Source of the DNA: a virus
Lineage: Duplodnaviria > Heunggongvirae > Uroviricota > Caudoviricetes
Strand: one strand, 5' to 3'
IMG/VR virus record: IMGVR_UViG_2706794676_000003
DNA length: 19,182 nucleotides
A program made the position numbers and the translations under genes. A model generated the notes under the pieces. That model was not told where the DNA came from and searched no databases. It saw only the letters and a program-made list of their open reading frames with translations. Shown piece by piece: positions 8,708 through 19,182 of the stretch (position 1 is the first letter of the stretch; every line of letters starts with the position of its first letter).

Positions 8708-9685
8708 GTGAGTTCAGGTGCAAAGGTTATCTCGGCATTTATCCGGGAGACGGTTGCAGGCACTACGCCAGCAAGTGGTGACTGGAGTTTATTAAAACGC
8801 ACAAGCTGGGGAGTAAAACCCACCNNNNNNNNNNNNNNNNNNNNNNNNNNNNNNNNNNNNNNNNNNNNNNNNNNNNNNNNNNNNNNNNNNNNNNNNNNNN
8901 NNNNNNNNNNNNNNNNNNNNNNNNNNNNNNNNNNNNNNNNNNNNNNNNNNNNNNNNNNNNNNNNNNNNNNNNNNNNNNNNNNNNNNNNNNNNNNNNNNNN
9001 NNNNNNNNNNNNNNNNNNNNNNNNNNNNNNNNNNNNNNNNNNNNNNNNNNNNNNNNNNNNNNNNNNNNNNNNNNNNNNNNNAGCGCAGGTTGGCTCATGG
9101 AAAATGCAGATCCCTAACGACGGCGATATTACAGCGACCGTAACCTTTGCCGGACTGGACTGGGAATCAAAGGCCGATGATACGAATTTTATCAAAGGCG
9201 AACCTGTGGATAGTGCAGGAAAGCTACGTTATTCGTTTAAGGAGGTTTCAGCAGTAAGCCTGAATGGTGTTGCCGGAGGTAACGGTTTTTGTATCGACAG
9301 TTTTGATATTCAGTTCGATAACAAACTCCAGACACAGCGTTGTATCGGGACTGGCTCGCCTTATGCAGGAGCAAATATTCCGACTACTTTTACACCGTCC
9401 GGTACGGTGACGCTTTCATGGTCTAAAGCCGCGTGGGAAATCTGGAGTAAAACACTGACTGGAGAAACAGTTCCGTTCAGCTTCACGCTTTCGAATGGAG
9501 AGGGGGCATACACTTTCAGTTTCCCGAAGGTTCAGGTGTCAGGTGAATGGCCTGATGGGGGTAATAGCGACATTATCCAGGTTCAATTGAGCATTACCGC
9601 AGCAGATGAAGCACCTACGATAACCAGAAAAAAAAATTCCCCGGCTGCCGTGATCGCAAAAGCCAGTGCTGAGGCGATTAGTTGA
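8708..9685 (+). CDS. major tail (tube) protein (spans masked block 8825-9081)
   Basis: GTG 8708 with a perfect AGGAGG 6 nt upstream; 325-aa ORF continuous in frame through the N-run; position between the tail terminator and the G/GT chaperone genes. Confidence 0.7.
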   Translation: MSSGAKVISAFIRETVAGTTPASGDWSLLKRTSWGVKPTXXXXXXXXXXXXXXXXXXXXXXXXXXXXXXXXXXXXXXXXXXXXXXXXXXXXXXXXXXXXXXXXXXXXXXXXXXXXXXXXXXXXXXAQVGSWKMQIPNDGDITATVTFAGLDWESKADDTNFIKGEPVDSAGKLRYSFKEVSAVSLNGVAGGNGFCIDSFDIQFDNKLQTQRCIGTGSPYAGANIPTTFTPSGTVTLSWSKAAWEIWSKTLTGETVPFSFTLSNGEGAYTFSFPKVQVSGEWPDGGNSDIIQVQLSITAADEAPTITRKKNSPAAVIAKASAEAIS

Positions 9686-9733
9686 TTTTCCGTTATTCCT
9701 CCTGTGGTACTGCCCTACAGGGGGACGCATTGA

Positions 9734-10195
9734 ATGAGGTTATGGATGTTTATTCTTAATCAGAAAATTATCATTGGTGGAGAACGCTGGTTTACGCCAA
9801 TGAAGGACTTAAAACCTGTAGACGGGTTAAAACTGTTGGTGGCAAGCAGCGATAACGATCAGTATCGCTCCCGTAATGCATTAATCCGTCGCCACATTGA
9901 GAAAATGGATGCCAGTTTGCACGTCGGAACGAAGGAGTTTGATATTTCAAAGGTTTCCGAGGTGGATTCTGTTGATGATTTACTCATTGATAATGCCGCT
10001 CGTTATCTGCTGAAAGACTGGAAAGGGGTTGGTGAACTGGTTAATGGTGTTGAGGTTGCACTGGAATATACGGCAGAACGAGGGATCGCGCTGCTTAAGC
10101 AGAATCCAGAGTTGTACTGGCAGATCCTTGCAGAAGCAGCCAGCATCGCCCAGGGTAAAGAGCAGCAGAAGCAGGATACGATAAAAAAGCCATAG
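9734..10195 (+). CDS. tail assembly chaperone (lambda G analogue)
   Basis: 153-aa ORF between the major tail and tape measure genes, ending 7 nt after a slippery heptamer; G-run SD at ~9720-9724. ATG 9800 is an alternative start. Confidence 0.7.
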   Translation: MRLWMFILNQKIIIGGERWFTPMKDLKPVDGLKLLVASSDNDQYRSRNALIRRHIEKMDASLHVGTKEFDISKVSEVDSVDDLLIDNAARYLLKDWKGVGELVNGVEVALEYTAERGIALLKQNPELYWQILAEAASIAQGKEQQKQDTIKKP

Positions 10196-10503
10196 CTGCC
10201 CAGCGGTGGTTATCGGAGTTCGGGGGAGAAAGGGGGGAAAAGGCAAGATGGAAGCGAGAAAAACTCAGGTTGCCACCGATACCGGAACCAGAAATAGACC
10301 CGGTGCTTAAGGAGTTGTTGTACGCCTATTCGGTAATATCCCGTGCCCGACGTTATGCTGGAATGGCTGGGGTGCCTTTGCCTTTATCTCTGACAGAGAT
10401 AAATGAATATTTAGCCACTCATCCGGTATTGATTGAGCGCGATGAATTTGAAGCAGTGATCTTTGCACTGGATGACCAGTATTTTCAGGAGCAGTGTGTG
10501 TAG
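9734..10503 (+). CDS. tail assembly chaperone GT fusion made by programmed -1 ribosomal frameshift at 10183-10189
   Basis: The -1 frame is open from 10159 to 10503 and overlaps the end of G; a slip at A_AAA_AAG places ribosomes in that frame (..QDTIKK-AIAAQRWLSEFGGERGEK...LPPIPEPEIDPVLKELL...FQEQCV). The stand-alone T ORF in the track has only a TTG start at 10270. Confidence 0.6.
10183..10189 (+). promoter_or_regulatory. slippery heptanucleotide A_AAA_AAG for -1 frameshifting (G to GT)
   Basis: Heptamer in the X_XXY_YYZ register of the G frame (codons AUA-AAA-AAG), identical in sequence to the E. coli dnaX shift site; located 4 nt before the G stop, as in the conserved G/GT arrangement of lambda-like tails. 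Confidence 0.6.
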
Positions 10504-10623
10504 TTGTTAATTACGTACACTCTGTTACAGAGATGTGATGGTGTCTTTAATTAAATCGATGATGCTCCTGGAGAAAAGCATTGCGTGGCCTCGTAATCGC
10601 TATATCTACTATTATGTCGCCTG

Positions 10624-10648
10624 AAACCCACTTCGCGGTGGGTTTTTT
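10624..10648 (+). terminator. rho-independent terminator-like hairpin immediately upstream of the tape measure gene
   Basis: AAACCCAC (10624-10631) / TTCGCG loop / GTGGGTTT (10638-10645), a perfect 8-bp stem running into a TTTTTT tract (10643-10648); 20 nt upstream of the tape measure start codon. Confidence 0.5.
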
Positions 10649-10668
10649 GTTGTCAGGAGTTTTAATAA

Positions 10669-13600
10669 ATGGCAGAGCAAACCTCGCGTCTCGCAATAAT
10701 TATTGATAGCACTGGAGCGAAAAATAATGCTGACAATCTGACCTCCTCATTAGTCAAAATGACGCAGGCTGGGGAAACTGCTGCAAATAGCGCAGGGAAA
10801 GTGACTAAGGCAACAGAAGATGAGAAGAACGCGCTCGCAAAATTAAAAGCAGCTATTGATCCAGTTGGTGCCGCAATTGATACTGTCGGTCGACGCTATT
10901 CTGAATTAAAGAAATTTTTCGATAAAGGGCTTATTGATAAAGAAGAATATGAATTTCTTGTCCGTAAACTTAATGAAACCACAGAGGAATTGAGCGGGGT
11001 TGCGCAAGCGCAGAGAGAAGCCGAGAAGGCCGGAAAACTTGCTGCCGCCCAGCAGGAAGCGCAGGCTCAGGCCTTTCAAAGAATGCTGGACAAGATCGAC
11101 CCTCTGGCTGCGGCGCTAAGAAATCTTGAACAACAGCATGATGAACTTAATGCTGCGTTTGCATCCGGGAAAATAAATGGTTCTCAGTTTGAGAATTATA
11201 GCCGAAAAATACAGGAAACACGGCGAGAGCTTACCGGAGAGGCTCAGGCAGAGCGAGAAGCAGCAAAAGCGCATGATGAACAGGTTGTTGCTTTGCAACG
11301 TCTGATTGCTCAACTTGATCCTGTCGGAACTGCTTTTAATCGTCTGGTAGAACAACAGAAACAGCTCAATGAAGCAAAAGCTAAGGGGATGCTTTCTCCT
11401 GAAATGTATGAGGAGCTTTCTGGAAAACTTCGTGCTATGCGGAGTGAGCTTGAGGTTACTCAATCACAATTAAGCAAAACCGGAATGTCGGCAAAACAAA
11501 CGGCTTTTGCTATGCGCATGTTGCCTGTACAAATGACGGATATTGTTGTTGGGTTGTCCACTGGTCAGTCGCCATTTATGGTGTTAATGCAGCAGGGCGG
11601 CCAGCTAAAAGATATGTTCGGTGGGATTGGCCCGGCGATCAAAGGTGTAGGTTCTTATGTGCTGGGATTAATTAATCCTTTTACCCTGGCCGCAGCAGCC
11701 GTTGGGGTCTTAGGACTGGCTTACTATAAAGGCTCTCAGGAGCAGGACGAATTTAATAAATCTCTTATTCTTACCGGAAATCAGTTGGGGACAACCAGCG
11801 GGCAATTGGGCGATATAGCTCAACGTGCCGGGAATGCGGCTGATTCGACAACTGGTGCTGCGGCGGCAGTATTAAATCAGCTTGTGCGTTCGGGAAAGGT
11901 AGCGAGCAGTTCGCTGGAGCAAGTGACGACAGCGATAGTAAAAACGAGCGAAGTAACAGGAATATCAACCGAACAACTGGTTAATGACTTCAATGAAATT
12001 GCAAAGGATCCTGTCAGTGCCATATCAAAACTTAATGATCAGTACCATTTTCTGACACTTGCGACTTATAACCAGATTAAGGCGCTACAGGATGAAGGGA
12101 ACCAGCAGGAGGCCGCCCGCATTGCGACAGAAGAATACTCATCCTCAATGATCCAGCGCACCAACCAGATTAAAGAAAATCTTGGTTATCTTGAGACTGC
12201 ATGGAAAGCTGTCGCAGACTCCGCAAAATGGGCATGGGATTCCATGCTGGATATTGGCCGTGAGGCCTCCCTTGATCAAAAAATCTCAGATGTTCTCCGT
12301 CAAATTGATGAAATAGAAAAAAATACCCGACCCGGAGTTTTCGGGTTAGGTGGCATTGGAGATGGCGGAGCTCAAAATAAAAGGCTGGCACGATTAAAGC
12401 AGCAATTGGGCGTACTTCAAGCAGAAAAAATTGCTCAGGACGTACTAAATTCATCAATAAACGATTACAACAAGCGACAACAGGAAGGAATTGAACTCAG
12501 ACAGAGAGCAGATGCCTTTTCAAAACAATATCAGACCCGGGAGCAGCAGAGAGCTAGTGAACTTGCAAAACTGGAAAAGCTAAAGAATCAGTATTCAAAG
12601 GAAGAATATAATAATCTTATCGCTCAAATAAATGAGCGTTATAAAGATCCAAAGCAACCAAAGGCGAAAGGTTATTCTGATGATGCAGCCCAACGAATGA
12701 TTGATCATCTGAATCAACAGAATGCGTTACTAAGTTCACAAGCTGAGTTGACCGTTAAATTAAGTTCCTCTGAACAGGAACTGGTTAAGTGGCGTCAGCG
12801 GATTGCCGACCTAGAGTCACGACCATCATCGAAATTAACCCAGGATCAGAAATCGCTTCTCTTACACCGGGAAGAAATAACCACGTTGATGGAGAAAAAT
12901 GTTGCGATTGAAAAAAATAACAGGCTAATCAAGGAATCCGCCGAAATAACAGCATGGCGTGATTCATTGCAGGCTTCGATTGATAATCGTCAGCAGGGGT
13001 ATGATATTCAGATTGCTGGTTATGGGGTTGGCGATAAAAATCAGCAACGCCAGCAGGAATTACTGCGGATTGAACATGGATATAACAATCAGCGTCTGCA
13101 ACTTGAACGTGACTATGCAGATAAATCCCGTGGAATGTCAGATCATGTTTTTCAAGAGAAAATGCAGGCTCTGAATGATGCTCTGGAACGGGAAAAAGAA
13201 ATTGTCAGACAGAAAAACGAGCAGCTCGATATTCAGGCAGGAGACTGGGTTAGTGGTGCCTCCCAGGGATTCAATAACTGGCTGGATGACACTAAGGATA
13301 TCAGTGAGCAGATAAAATCAACCACGACTCAGATGTTTGATGGGATGACCGATGCGCTGGGTGATTTTGTCACGACAGGCAAGGCAAATTTTCGTTCTTT
13401 CGCTACTTCCGTGATTTCGGATCTTAGTCGAATAGCATTAAAGGCTTCAATTACTGGGATTTTCGACAGCATTAGTAACAGTTCTTCTGGGGGGATTTTA
13501 GGAACTATCGGGAGTGCTATTAGTAAATTTATTCCGAATGCAAAGGGCGGTGTTTATGAGTCTCCGTCATTGAGCACGTATTCGAACGGTATTTATGATT

Positions 13601-13902
13601 CCCCGCAATTTTTTGCTTTTGCAAAAGGGGCTGGTGTTTTTGGTGAGGCTGGACCGGAAGCCATTATGCCATTAACACGAACTTCCGATGGTTCTCTTGG
13701 TGTCAGAGCTATTAATAGTAAAAGTGGTAATGGAGGCGGAGATATTACCTATGCCCCTGTATACCAAATCACTATTCAAAATGACGGCCAGAATGGAGAG
13801 ATTGGCCCTCAGGCAATAAAAGCACTTATGGGGATGGTTGATCAGCGGGTGCAGGGCAATCTGTTAAATATGCGACGTGATGGGGGAATGTTAAGTGGCT
13901 AA
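10669..13902 (+). CDS. tail length tape measure protein (lambda H homologue, 1077 aa)
   Basis: Long ORF with CAGGAG SD; contains a conserved core resembling lambda H ([38 protein letters not shown]) and a lambda H-like C-terminus (..[17 protein letters not shown]...[10 protein letters not shown]); lies between G/GT and M. Confidence 0.9.
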
Positions 13903-14233
13903 TACGGAAGAATTTCACTGGTTACCAGAGGATGGAATGAAAACAGAAAATAAACCATCGATAAAAACTGTAAGATTTGGTGATGGTTATGAGCAACGAA
14001 GTCCAAATGGACTTAATCATTCTCTGCGCGTTTTCACCTGTGATTTCAAAGTTGAGGCGAATGAACGTGATTCATTTGAAAAATTTTTAGCCCGGCATGA
14101 AGGCTATAAATCTTTTTTTTGGCGCCCGCCGGGTATTAACAGAAAAATCAGAGTGGTGTGTCGAACGTGGTCAGCGACAGAACATATCACCTATACCGAT
14201 TTTTCGTGTCAGTTTGACGAAGTGGTGATCTGA
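13895..14233 (+). CDS. M: minor tail protein M (divergent lambda M homologue)
   Basis: Contains the [16 protein letters not shown] motif of lambda M; homology to the lambda M N-terminus (F-x-W...GM) extends upstream of the internal ATG 13937, favouring GTG 13895 with GGGGGA SD 7 nt upstream; stop overlaps the L start (TGATG). Confidence 0.8.
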
Positions 14234-14931
14234 TGCAGGACATACAACAGGAAACGCTGAATGAATGCATTCGTGCGGAGCAGTCGGCCAGCGTGGTGCT
14301 CTGGGAAATCGACCTGACCGAGGTAGGCGGGGATCGCTACTTTTTCTGCAATGAGCAGAACGAGAAAGGAGAGTCTGTCACCTGGCAGAGTCGGCAGTAT
14401 CAGGCCTATCCCATTCAGGGGAGTGGATTTGAGATGAACGGCAAAGGTGCCAGTGCAAGGCCAACGCTGAAAGTCTCTAATCTGCACGGCATGGTCACCG
14501 GGATGGCGGAAGACCTGCAGAGTCTGGTCGGCGGAACGGTGGTCAGGCGTAAGGTTTACGCCCGTTTTCTGGATGCGGTGAACTTCGTCAACGGAAACAG
14601 TGACGCCGATCCGGAGCAGGAGGTGATCAGCCGCTGGCGTATTGAGCAGTGCAGCGAACTGAGCGCGGTCAGTGCCTCCTTTGTACTGTCCACGCCGACG
14701 GAAACGGACGGCGCTGTTTTTCCGGGGCGCATCATGCTTGCTAATACCTGCACCTGGACCTATCGCGGTGATGAGTGCGGTTATCACGGTCCGGCTGTCG
14801 CGGATGAATATGACCAGCNNNNNNNNNNNNNNNNNNNNNNNNNNNNNNNNNNNNNNNNNNNNNNNNNNNNNNNNNNNNNNNNNNNNNNNNNNNNNNNNNN
14901 NNNNNNNNNNNNNNNNNNNNNNNNNNNNNNN
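14233..14931 (+). CDS. L: minor tail protein L (3' end lies inside masked block 14819-15069; end inferred from a 232-aa lambda L)
   Basis: Translation [47 protein letters not shown]... matches lambda gpL almost residue for residue (from memory); the stop codon is hidden in the N-run. Confidence 0.85.
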
Positions 14932-15087
14932 NNNNNNNNNNNNNNNNNNNNNNNNNNNNNNNNNNNNNNNNNNNNNNNNNNNNNNNNNNNNNNNNNNNNN
15001 NNNNNNNNNNNNNNNNNNNNNNNNNNNNNNNNNNNNNNNNNNNNNNNNNNNNNNNNNNNNNNNNNNNNNCCGGAGGAGTATTTCCGG

Positions 15088-15687
15088 ATGGCTCCGGAGG
15101 ACTGGCTGCAGGCAGAGATGCAGGGTGAGATTGTGGCGCTGGTCCACAGCCACCCCGGTGGTCTGCCCTGGCTGAGTGAGGCCGACCGGCGGCTGCAGGT
15201 GCAGAGTGATTTGTCGTGGTGGCTGGTCTGCCGCGGGGCGATTCACAAGTTCCGCTGTGTGCCGCATCTCACCGGGCGGCGCTTTGAGCACGGGGTGACG
15301 GACTGTTACACGCTGTTCCGGGACGCTTACCATCTGGCGGGAATTGAGATGCCAGATTTTCATCGTGAGGACGACTGGTGGCGTAATGGTCAGAATCTCT
15401 ATCTGGATAATCTGGAGGCTACAGGGCTGTATCAGGTGCCGTTGTCAACGGCGCAGCCGGGCGATGTGCTGCTGTGCTGTTTTGGTTCATCGGTGCCGAA
15501 TCATGCCGCCATTTACTGTGGTGACGGCGAGCTGCTGCACCATATTCCTGAACAACTGAGCAAACGAGAGAGGTATACCGACAAATGGCAGCGACGCACA
15601 CACTCCCTCTGGCGTCACCGGGCATGGCACGCATCTGCCTTTACGGGGATTTGCAGCGATTTGGCCGCCGCATCGACCTTCGTGTGA
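15088..15687 (+). CDS. K: tail tip assembly protein K (JAMM/MPN plus NlpC/P60-like)
   Basis: ATG 15088 with GGAGGA SD gives a 199-aa product (MAPEDWLQAEMQGEIVALVHSHPGG...AASTFV), the same length and near-identical sequence as lambda gpK; HSHP motif visible; 3' end overlaps I by 103 nt as in lambda. Confidence 0.85.
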   Translation: MAPEDWLQAEMQGEIVALVHSHPGGLPWLSEADRRLQVQSDLSWWLVCRGAIHKFRCVPHLTGRRFEHGVTDCYTLFRDAYHLAGIEMPDFHREDDWWRNGQNLYLDNLEATGLYQVPLSTAQPGDVLLCCFGSSVPNHAAIYCGDGELLHHIPEQLSKRERYTDKWQRRTHSLWRHRAWHASAFTGICSDLAAASTFV

Positions 15688-16232
15688 AAACGGGGGCCGA
15701 AGCCATCCGGGCACTGGCCACACAGCTCCCGGCATTTCGTCAGAAACTGAGCGACGGCTGGTATCAGGTGCGCATTGCCGGGCGTGATGCAGGCGAAAAT
15801 GAATTATCTGCCCGTCTTAATGAACCGCTGGCAAATGGTGCCGTGATCCACATCGTTCCGCGTCTGGCGGGTGCCAAAAGTGGCGGTGTGTTTCAGGCGG
15901 TGCTGGGTGCGGCGCTGATTGCGGTGGCATGGTGGAACCCTGTGGGCTGGCTGGGGGCCGCGGCTGTATCGGGTATGTATGCAGCAGGGGCCAGTATGAT
16001 CCTGGGTGGTGTGGCGCAGATGCTGGCACCGAAAGCCAGGACGCCCACGGCAGCCAGTACAGATAACGGCAAACAGAACACGTATTTCTCGTCACTGGAT
16101 AACATGGTTGCCCAGGGTAATGTTCTGCCTGTTCTGTACGGGGAAATGCGCGTGGGGTCACGTGTGGTTTCTCAGGAGATCAGCACGGCAGACGAAGGGG
16201 ATGGTGGTCAGGTTGTGGTGATTGGTCGCTGA
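15585..16232 (+). CDS. I: tail tip assembly protein I
   Basis: MAATHTLPLASPGMARICLYGDLQRFGRRIDLRVKTGAEAIRALATQLPAFRQKLSDGWYQVRIAGRD... and the C-terminus ..NVLPVLYGEMRVGSRVVSQEISTADEGDGGQVVVIGR match lambda gpI (from memory); the middle portion differs and the product is 215 aa. Confidence 0.9.
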   Translation: MAATHTLPLASPGMARICLYGDLQRFGRRIDLRVKTGAEAIRALATQLPAFRQKLSDGWYQVRIAGRDAGENELSARLNEPLANGAVIHIVPRLAGAKSGGVFQAVLGAALIAVAWWNPVGWLGAAAVSGMYAAGASMILGGVAQMLAPKARTPTAASTDNGKQNTYFSSLDNMVAQGNVLPVLYGEMRVGSRVVSQEISTADEGDGGQVVVIGR

Positions 16233-16250
16233 TGCAAAATGTTTTATGAG

Positions 16251-16277
16251 AAACCGCCTGCGGGCGGTTTTGTCGTT
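16251..16277 (+). terminator. terminator-like hairpin between I and J
   Basis: AAACCGCC (16251-16258) / TGCG loop / GGCGGTTT (16263-16270), a perfect 8-bp stem followed by TGTCGTTT (interrupted U-tract); sits in the 60-nt I-J spacer. Confidence 0.45.
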
Positions 16278-16292
16278 TATGGAGCGTGAGGA

Positions 16293-19182
16293 ATGGGTAA
16301 AGGCAGCAGTAAGGGGCATACCCCGCGCGAAGCGAAGGACAACCTGAAGTCCACGCAGCTGCTGAGTGTGATCGATGCCATCAGTGAAGGGCCGGTTGAA
16401 GGTCCGGTGGATGGATTAAAAAGCGTGCTGCTGAACAGTACGCCGGTGCTGGACAATGAGGGGAATACCAACATCTCCGGCGTCACGGTGGTGTTCCGGG
16501 CAGGTGAGCAGGAGCAGTCACCGCCGGAGGGGTTTGAATCCTCCGGCTCCGAGACGGTGCTGGGTACGGAAGTGAAATATGACACGCCGATCACCCGGAC
16601 CATCACGTCGGCAAACATCGACCGTCTGCGCTTTACCTTCGGTGTACAGGCACTGGTGGAAACCACCTCAAAGGGAGACAGGAATCCGTCGGAAGTCCGC
16701 CTGCTGGTTCAGATACAGCGTAACGGTGGCTGGGTGACGGAAAAAGACATCACCATTAAGGGCAAAACCACCTCGCAGTATCTGGTCTCGGNNNNNNNNN
16801 NNNNNNNNNNNNNNNNNNNNNNNNNNNNNNNNNNNNNNNNNNNNNNNNNNNNNNNNNNNNNNNNNNNNNNNNNNNNNNNNNNNNNNNNNNNNNNNNNNNN
16901 NNNNNNNNNNNNNNNNNNNNNNNNNNNNNNNNNNNNNNNNNNNNNNNNNNNNNNNNNNNNNNNNNNNNNNNNNNNNNNNNNNNNNNNNNNNNNNNNNNNN
17001 NNNNNNNNNNNNNNNNNNNNNNNNNNNNNNNNNNNNNNNNNNNNNNNNNNNNNNNNNNNNATACAGCGGTATCTGGGACGGAACGTTAAAACCAGCATAC
17101 AGCAACAACATGGCCTGGTGTCTGTGGGATATGCTGACCCACCCGCGCTACGGCATGGGGAAACGTCTTGGTGCGGCGGATGTGGACAAATGGGCGCTGT
17201 ATGTCATCGGCCAGTACTGCGACCAGTCAGTGCCGGACGGCTTTGGCGGCACGGAGCCGCGCATCACCTGTAATGCGTACCTGACCACACAGCGCAAGGC
17301 GTGGGATGTGCTCAGTGATTTCTGCTCGGCGATGCGCTGTATGCCGGTATGGAACGGGCAGACGCTGACGTTCGTGCAGGACCGACCGTCGGATAAGGTG
17401 TGGACCTATAACCGCAGTAATGTGGTGATGCCGGATGATGGCGCGCCGTTCCGCTACAGCTTCAGCGCCCTGAAAGACCGCCATAATGCCGTTGAGGTGA
17501 ACTGGATTGACCCGGATAACGGCTGGGAGACGGCGACAGAGCTTGTGGAGGATACGCAGGCCATTGCCCGTTACGGTCGTAACGTCACGAAGATGGATGC
17601 TTTTGGCTGTACCAGCCGGGGGCAGGCACACCGCGCCGGGCTGTGGCTGATTAAAACAGAACTGCTGGAAACGCAGACCGTGGACTTCAGCGTGGGCGCA
17701 GAAGGGCTTCGCCATGTGCCGGGCGATGTCATTGAAATCTGTGATGATGACTATGCGGGTATCAGCATCGGCGGGCGCGTGCTGGCGGTAAACAGCCAGA
17801 CCCGGACGCTGACGCTCGACCGTGAAATCACGCTGCCATCCTCCGGTACCATGCTGATAAGCCTGGTTGACGGAAGTGGCAATCCGGTCAGCGTGGAGGT
17901 TCAGTCCGTCACCGACGGCGTGAAGGTGAAAGTGAGCCGTGTTCCTGACGGCGTTGCTGAATACAGCGTGTGGGGGCTGAAGCTGCCGACGTTGCGCCAG
18001 CGCCTGTTCCGCTGTGNNNNNNNNNNNNNNNNNNNNNNNNNNNNNNNNNNNNNNNNNNNNNNNNNNNNNNNNNNNNNNNNNNNNNNNNNNNNGCTGACAG
18101 TCCGGGCGGTAAATGCCTGGGGACAGCAGGGCGATCCGGCGTCGGTATCGTTCAGGATTGCCGCACCGGTAGCACCGTCGCGGATTGAGCTGACGCCGGG
18201 CTATTTTCAGATAACTGCCACGCCGCATCTTGCGGTTTATGATCCGACGGTACAGTTTGAGTTCTGGTTCTCGGAAACGCGGATTACCGATATCAGGCAG
18301 GTTGAAACCACAGCCCGCTACCTTGGCGCGGGGCTGTACTGGATAGCCGCCAGTATCAATATCAAACCGGGCCATGATTATTACTTTTATATCCGCAGTG
18401 TGAACACCGTTGGCAAATCGGCATTCGTGGAGGCCGTCGGTCGGGCGAGCGATGATGCGGAAGGTTACCTGGATTTTTTCAAAGGCAAGATAACCGAATC
18501 CCATCTCGGTAAAGAGCTGCTGGAAAAAGTTGATCTGACGGAGGATAACGCCAGCAGACTGGATGAGTTTTCGAAAGAGTGGAAGGACGCTAACGATAAA
18601 TGGAATGCGATGTGGGGCGTCAAAATTGAGCAGACCAAAGACGGCAAACATTATGTCGCGGGTATTGGCCTCAGCATGGAGGACACGGAGGAAGGCAAGC
18701 TGAGCCAGTTTCTGGTTGCCGCCAATCGTATCGCGTTTATTGACCCGGCAAACGGGAATGAAACGCCGATGTTTGTGGCGCAGGGCAACCAGATATTCAT
18801 GAACGACGTGTTCCTGAAGCGCCTGACAGCCCCCGCCATTACCAGCGGTGGCAGTCCTCCGGTATTTTCCCTGACATCAGACGGAAAGCTGACCGCTAAA
18901 AATGCGGATATCAGTGGTAGTGTGAATGCGAACTCAGGAACGCTCAACAATGTCACGATTAACCAGAACTGTACGATTAAGGGCATGCTGGAGGCGACCC
19001 AGGTCAGAGGGGATTTCGTTAAAGCTGTATCAAAAGCCTTCCCGAAAAAAGTCGGTACGTGGGGTAACACGGAAACACCAGACGGTACGGTTACAGTCAC
19101 CATCAGCGATGATCATAACTTTGACCGCCAGATTATTATTCCGCCCATTATTTTTAACGGTATAGCGTATGACGATCCGGGG
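16293..19182 (+). CDS. J: tail tip / central tail fibre protein J (host specificity protein), 5' ~960 codons; runs off the window end; interrupted by masked blocks 16792-17060 and 18017-18092
   Basis: Starts [34 protein letters not shown]... as lambda gpJ; after the first N-run the J sequence continues in frame 1 ([44 protein letters not shown]...) and stays open to the end of the window. Not a single entry in the ORF track because no stop codon is present and the frame changes across the first N-run. Confidence 0.9.

Follow-up and report, generated by a model that had tools for sequence, protein, structure and literature searches.

A phage 434-type, probably OmpC-binding end on the lambda-like central tail fibre gene J of a lambdoid late-gene region

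The J gene in lambda, 434 and related phages

J is the central tail fibre, or tip attachment protein, of lambdoid phages. Residues 960-1132 of J form a specificity region that recombines freely with the rest of the protein, the phylogeny of this region is strongly discordant with that of whole J, and indels at residues 1012 and 1107, which are host-range positions, define J lineages (PMC6646904). The J gene described here lies at the end of IMG/VR virus record IMGVR_UViG_2706794676_000003, a stretch of 19,182 bases (the window) that covers the late-gene region of a lambdoid prophage or phage. The J protein of the window very probably consists of a lambda-like shaft that is joined, from about residue 974, to a 434-type (h434) receptor-binding module, and it would use OmpC rather than LamB.

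One closely related, solved system is lambda gpJ (PDB 8xcj, 8xck, 8iyk). The window J belongs to the same family, has the same architecture and trimeric fibre, is 93-96% identical to lambda in nucleotide sequence up to residue 973, and has a homologous C-terminal domain. The two differ from residue 974 onwards, where the identity is 55% for nucleotides and 50% for protein, and where the window J carries two insertions, one of 2 residues in the S1012 loop and one of 6 residues (IAYDDP) at the window end. The receptor of lambda is LamB, whereas OmpC is expected for the window J.

Phage 434 uses OmpC, and lambda carrying the 434 J binds OmpC and not LamB (PMC3509688 and PMC11101478, both citing Fuerst & Bingham 1978). 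In a 2025 study, the central fibre of 434 was described as OmpC-targeting, and pairwise identities of 35-40% were reported among the receptor-binding domains of phi330, 434, and lambda (PMC12502783). The 434 J (UMO75286.1, the h434 determinant) resembles the window J in the position of the crossover relative to lambda, in its domain layout, and in the G+C content (GC) of the module, 0.478. The original receptor assignment for 434 is reportedly that of Hantke in 1978.

Other natural J ends are built in a similar way. The Gifsy-1 J, the phi330 fibre, and the 1A2 chimera have a conserved N-terminal part of ~964 residues and a swapped C-terminal module that uses OmpC, although the sequences of these modules are distinct from that of the window. 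The conservation of ~964 N-terminal residues was noted in the Gifsy-1 study, and natural J ends have been grafted by engineers at residue 964 (PMC11338833). OmpC is thus the target of several J ends that look unrelated, among which the window has the classical 434 one.

The switch from lambda-type to 434-type sequence

The window J was compared with the genuine lambda J (NC_001416). A first-pass annotation, made from the window sequence, had placed a departure from lambda near position 18930, and the alignment confirms it at essentially those coordinates: nucleotide identity is 791/837 (94.5%) over 18093-18929 and 139/253 (54.9%) over 18930-19182 (Fisher p = 3e-46), and protein identity falls from 263/279 (94%) to 42/84 (50%). 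With these values and the indels, the C-terminal region is clearly less lambda-like than the rest of the protein. The J translation given in that annotation matches the window exactly, and the lambda J sequence that it quoted is exact against NC_001416. A few 434-like substitutions are already present from 18849 (NPPAFSLTP to SPPVFSLTS), dense nucleotide mismatches begin at 18936, and at the switch the first amino-acid change against lambda is S974N (18946-18948). The maximum chi-square breakpoint against lambda lies after 18959 (chi2 262; reached by 0 of 300 site permutations).

The switch can be placed on the domain structure of J (Table 1). The conserved fibre-shaft domain is ~94-98% identical to lambda, and its end overlaps a block of 22 residues that is nearly invariant in the J proteins of lambda, 434, SPF_0923/A8-type phages, and E. 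coli 98206, with one S-to-A change in SPF_0923. The J types diverge immediately after this block. The codon of residue 964 (18916-18918) lies within it, and the switch point agrees with both the published specificity region (960-1132) and the published graft point at residue 964. The divergent segment runs from the junction through a short variable linker into the receptor-binding domain, of which it includes the first 52 residues, and it is the start of the J specificity region. Pfam PF12421 (Ig_GpJ_C) is matched in the window from profile position 1 to 47, out of 135. The domain spans residues 1001-1136 in a full-length 434-type J, so the window holds 52 of ~136 receptor-binding-domain residues, and the part with most of the tip loops lies beyond it.

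The divergent stretch is identical to phage 434. Positions 18930-19182 match the 434 central tail fibre gene (OL657226) at 253/253 nucleotides and 84/84 amino acids, and residues 974-1052 match the 434 J and not the lambda J. A megablast search of this segment against the phage collection found 74 records, with Escherichia phage 434 at the top; 'Lambda h434 imm21' (OM418627) is 99.6% identical over the segment, and many Stx-converting and other lambdoid phages are ~99% identical. The module is also present in 2,091 of 5,426 complete E. coli genomes (~39%). An assembly chimera at the J junction is unlikely because the same junction is found in thousands of independent genomes. The window is not simply a copy of 434, however, since its J is 95.8% identical to that of 434 upstream of 18930, which is a different backbone allele, and its head and packaging genes are neither lambda-like nor 434-like.

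Different receptor specificity, as the first-pass annotation had proposed, is supported by these alignments and can be sharpened to OmpC by the identity to 434 J. That annotation had also allowed for a LamB variant. A J that still binds LamB or a LamB variant, with the divergence reflecting neutral drift or antigenic variation, could draw on the homology of the domain to the LamB-binding domain of lambda. It is nevertheless highly improbable: the 50% protein identity is accompanied by an indel at the 1012 loop, the breakpoint is abrupt with no gradual decay, and the segment is identical to that of 434, whose J gives a phage the use of OmpC in place of LamB. The LamB variant is accordingly not favoured, and the receptor of the window phage is most likely OmpC, by analogy with 434.

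The closest backbone in the phage collection belongs to a phage with a different end. Salmonella phage SPF_0923 (ON032529, L003) is 98.4% identical to the window over 104-18983, and the match stops there, with the breakpoint against SPF_0923 after 18983. A PDB search revealed that the J end of SPF_0923 (L003:23035-23586) is essentially the 'A8 gpJ 713' OmpC-binding module of PDB 9wca/9wcb. DNA from the supplement of PMC11338833 identified A8 as an SPF_0923-type end and 1A2 as a fourth type, and an assignment of the window module to A8 or 1A2 was rejected on these grounds. The A8/SPF_0923-type end shares with the window J the same joint, the same kind of shaft, OmpC as target (PMC11338833), and a GC of 0.47, and it sits on the closest backbone; it differs in its indels and, along the divergent stretch, is 59.3% identical to the window in nucleotides and ~64% in protein. 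Judged from these alignments, one backbone carries two OmpC-type ends, the 434-type in the window and the A8-type in SPF_0923, which appear to have been swapped at the conserved joint.

The DNA after 18930 had been noted as AT-richer, and its GC is indeed 0.478, compared with 0.536 in 18093-18929 and 0.57 for J overall. In a comparison of the ends (window 18930-19182, lambda L001:5408-5904, SPF_0923 L003:23094-23589), GC is ~0.47-0.48 in the 434-type and A8-type ends, 0.55-0.56 in that of lambda itself, and ~0.57 in the J shaft. Because the 434- and A8-type ends are low in GC and the lambda end is not, the AT-richness can be seen as a property of the imported module. It is consistent with an origin of the OmpC-type modules different from that of the shaft.

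The tip beyond the window and the receptor

The remainder of J lies outside the window, as had been noted, and amounts to ~85 codons; with the masked runs allowed for, the last J residue in the window is 1052 of 1137, or about lambda residue 1043 of 1132. The missing part was approached through co-occurrence. The complete 511-nucleotide 434-type end was found in the same number of phage records (74), of the same make-up, as the 253-nucleotide segment, and at full length in 74 of 74. Among matching records from complete E. coli genomes, 2094 of 2116 contain 80% or more of the 511-nucleotide end. Additionally, a search of IMG/VR with an exact 44-mer spanning two single-nucleotide polymorphisms private to the window returned eight contigs. 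One contig, L006, has 1 mismatch in 1090 nucleotides to the window and continues to the 434-type stop codon. All six informative IMG/VR contigs with the private 44-mer have the 434-type end. L009, L010, and L011 were left out for the J end, L009 and L010 having collapsed masked stretches. L011 (IMGVR_UViG_2693429679_000007, ~1510-1940) follows the window sequence to 19014 and, after a masked base, jumps elsewhere in J. On the evidence of co-occurrence and of the near-identical contig L006, residues 1053-1137 of the window J are almost certainly 434-type.

A second crossover in the receptor-binding domain just past the window would give the unseen end another type, such as the A8-type or the lambda-type. 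A putative internal breakpoint in the specificity region has been reported with Akaike information criterion support only (PMC6646904), and the closest backbone relative has an A8-type end. No such hybrid was seen, however; the two halves of the end occur together in the phage and E. coli records counted above (74/74 and 2094/2116), and all six informative contigs end in the 434 type, which makes a second crossover scarcely credible.

The tip of contig L006 carries three substitutions in one loop relative to 434, in which KVFHKGNQR becomes KIFQKGNQG, and the KIFQKGNQG tail is also found in L007, L008, L012, and E. coli 98206. The likely unseen tip loop of the window J may differ from that of 434 in the same way. 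Within the 434 family (J tips L002:4254-4511, L006:2602-2859, and L013-L016), protein variation is limited to a few positions that cluster at the loops aligned to lambda 1007-1012 and 1099-1107. The variants are KAFP/KSFP, KKV/KQA, D/N, DDPG/SDPG, SGGG/SGRG, and VFHKGNQR/IFQKGNQG/VFHKGNQW/VFQKGNQG, of which KKV/KQA and D/N fall at the 1012-site loop (the 19045-19083 region).

These differences raise the question of whether a tip-loop sub-variant (KIFQKGNQG, perhaps with others in the unseen part) has retuned a 434-like scaffold to a particular OmpC allele, or to another general porin, rather than to K-12 OmpC. The sub-variant is present in the 99.9%-identical L006 and the other tails named above, the variation of the 434 family is concentrated at sites aligned to the host-range positions 1012 and 1107, and other natural J ends do discriminate OmpC alleles, as the 1A2 chimera delivers to EDL933 OmpC and not to MG1655 OmpC (PMC11338833). 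However, the portion of the module that the window contains, with the 1012-site loop, does not differ from 434, and the protein sequences of the sub-variants agree at 91% or more over the module. A retuned tip of this kind is quite unlikely. The more general idea that the loop differences at the 1012 and 1107 sites tune J to the OmpC variant of each host lineage is unlikely as well. If it holds, the sub-variant of the window lineage would differ from 434 in host range, and prophage J tips could read out the matching of OmpC alleles across E. coli.

Some points weigh against the assignment of the window J to the 434 type and OmpC. The last ~85 residues of the receptor-binding domain, including the tip loop aligned to lambda 1107, are outside the window, and for this reason co-occurrence stands in for direct sequence there, with identity to 434 supporting the receptor call for the third of the domain that is visible. 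The closest relatives with a full-length J depart from 434 in the three tip-loop residues described above. Additionally, the source for OmpC as the 434 receptor is reviews citing the genetics of 1978, as opposed to a solved 434 J-OmpC complex. A literature search for receptor data on close relatives (mEp332, the PhiR series, mEp460) and on 'h434' with OmpC returned nothing usable.

The mode of action of the end can be modelled on lambda. Over its full length, the 434-type C-terminus can be aligned with the structures of the lambda gpJ C-terminus, 8xcj/8xck (E = 1.8e-44), and by this alignment the fold and the trimeric fibre context are common to the two. This full-length alignment with a solved structure makes the lambda mechanism the natural model for the 434-type end. 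A correspondence between lambda loops L1-L4 and positions 1012 and 1107 at the level of residues was looked for in the accessible text of the structure paper and not found. In the proposed mechanism, a 434 module would have been joined to a lambda-like backbone by homologous recombination in the conserved block 952-973, which is the joint used for the exchange of J specificity regions throughout the lambdoid phages. On the model of the solved lambda structure, three C-terminal immunoglobulin (Ig)-like domains would sit at the tip of the trimeric fibre and their loops would insert into a trimeric outer-membrane porin, which for the 434-type module would be OmpC and not LamB. Binding to the porin would then trigger rearrangement and twisting of the fibre, leading to opening of the tail. 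A lambda-type tip mechanism for the window J is what we infer from this analogy.

Gene layout of the window and place of the 434-type end

J closes the tail-tip series M-L-K-I-J after the tape measure gene, with Lambda_tail_I at 15585-16232 directly before it, and the genes matched in relatives are annotated M, L, K, I, and J. The window contains five runs of masked bases (N) at 2799-3064, 8825-9081, 14819-15069, 16792-17060, and 18017-18092. The two runs within J preserve neither length nor frame, and the E. coli matches span 2392 nucleotides for a query of 2122 nucleotides. Residue numbers and gene lengths that are read directly from the window are therefore wrong downstream of these runs, and an end of the window at about J residue 963 was rejected once this was found. 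Some of the listed open reading frames (ORFs), for example 14233-15687, cross masked stretches.

The three readable pieces of J are 96.4%, 96.3%, and 93.0% identical to lambda in nucleotide sequence. All six Pfam domains of the family series, FNIII-A_GpJ, Phage-tail_3, Ig_J, Ig_J_second, Phage_Tail_Tip, and Ig_GpJ_C, were detected on these pieces, with Ig_J partly visible owing to an N run and Ig_GpJ_C cut by the window end; the complete series is present in a full-length J relative. The NCBIfam model lambda_TipJ matches the last 363 J residues with E = 6.6e-193 and 643 bits, to be read against a cut-off of 1950 bits that is set for the full-length protein.

Table 1. Coordinates of J, its parts and other features in the window
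Feature	Coordinates	Strand	Details
MuF-like protein	3688-4803		head module
DUF6651 protein	4836-5672		head module
P22-coat-like protein	5678-6910		head module
Tape measure protein	10669-13902		1,077 aa, against 853 in lambda
Gene J (central tail fibre / tip attachment protein)	16293-19182	+	ATG at 16293; incomplete at window end
Masked N run inside J	16792-17060		269 N standing for ~265 nt
Masked N run inside J	18017-18092		76 N standing for ~346 nt; downstream J coordinates compressed
Conserved fibre-shaft domain, Pfam Phage_Tail_Tip PF09327	18562-18942	+	residues 157-283 of last J piece, E = 3.1e-34
Last conserved block, 22 residues (lambda residues 952-973)	18880-18945	+	natural crossover joint
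First divergent stretch, residues 974-1000	18946-19026	+	between shaft and receptor-binding domain; 434-type
First 52 residues of C-terminal receptor-binding domain (Pfam Ig_GpJ_C)	19027-19182	+	434-type
13-residue loop with 2-residue insertion against lambda at S1012 site	19045-19083	+	from alignment, lambda RQRES--SVDWPS

Long antisense ORFs lie inside J, one of 474 amino acids at 17227-18651 (minus strand) that crosses an N run and one of 150 amino acids at 18651-19103 (minus strand). The latter was considered as a gene and found unsupported, since in this region the curated 434 record, whose sequence over 18930-19182 equals that of the window, annotates no gene on the minus strand. The antisense ORFs inside J are probably spurious, as the curated J of phage 434 has no annotated minus-strand gene.

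The tail-tip genes of the window are lambda-like. The packaging and head module (235-6910) is not, and features a small terminase of the Terminase_2 family and a T4-type large terminase (Terminase_6N/6C). In related phages a NAD+-asparagine ADP-ribosyltransferase is annotated in the head and packaging module; no ADP-ribosyltransferase domain was detected with Pfam or NCBIfam on the MuF-like ORF of the window.

Published work already covers the 434-type module and its receptor as well as the joint and the pattern of recombination, and the arrangement is long known and common. As all of these are described and the module occurs in ~39% of complete E. coli genomes, the window J opens no new question, and the module is mechanistically understood by analogy with lambda. 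For annotation, the window J can be labelled a 434-type, probably OmpC-binding central tail fibre and not a LamB binder. It is also a textbook case of how receptor-binding ends are exchanged as modules at a conserved joint.

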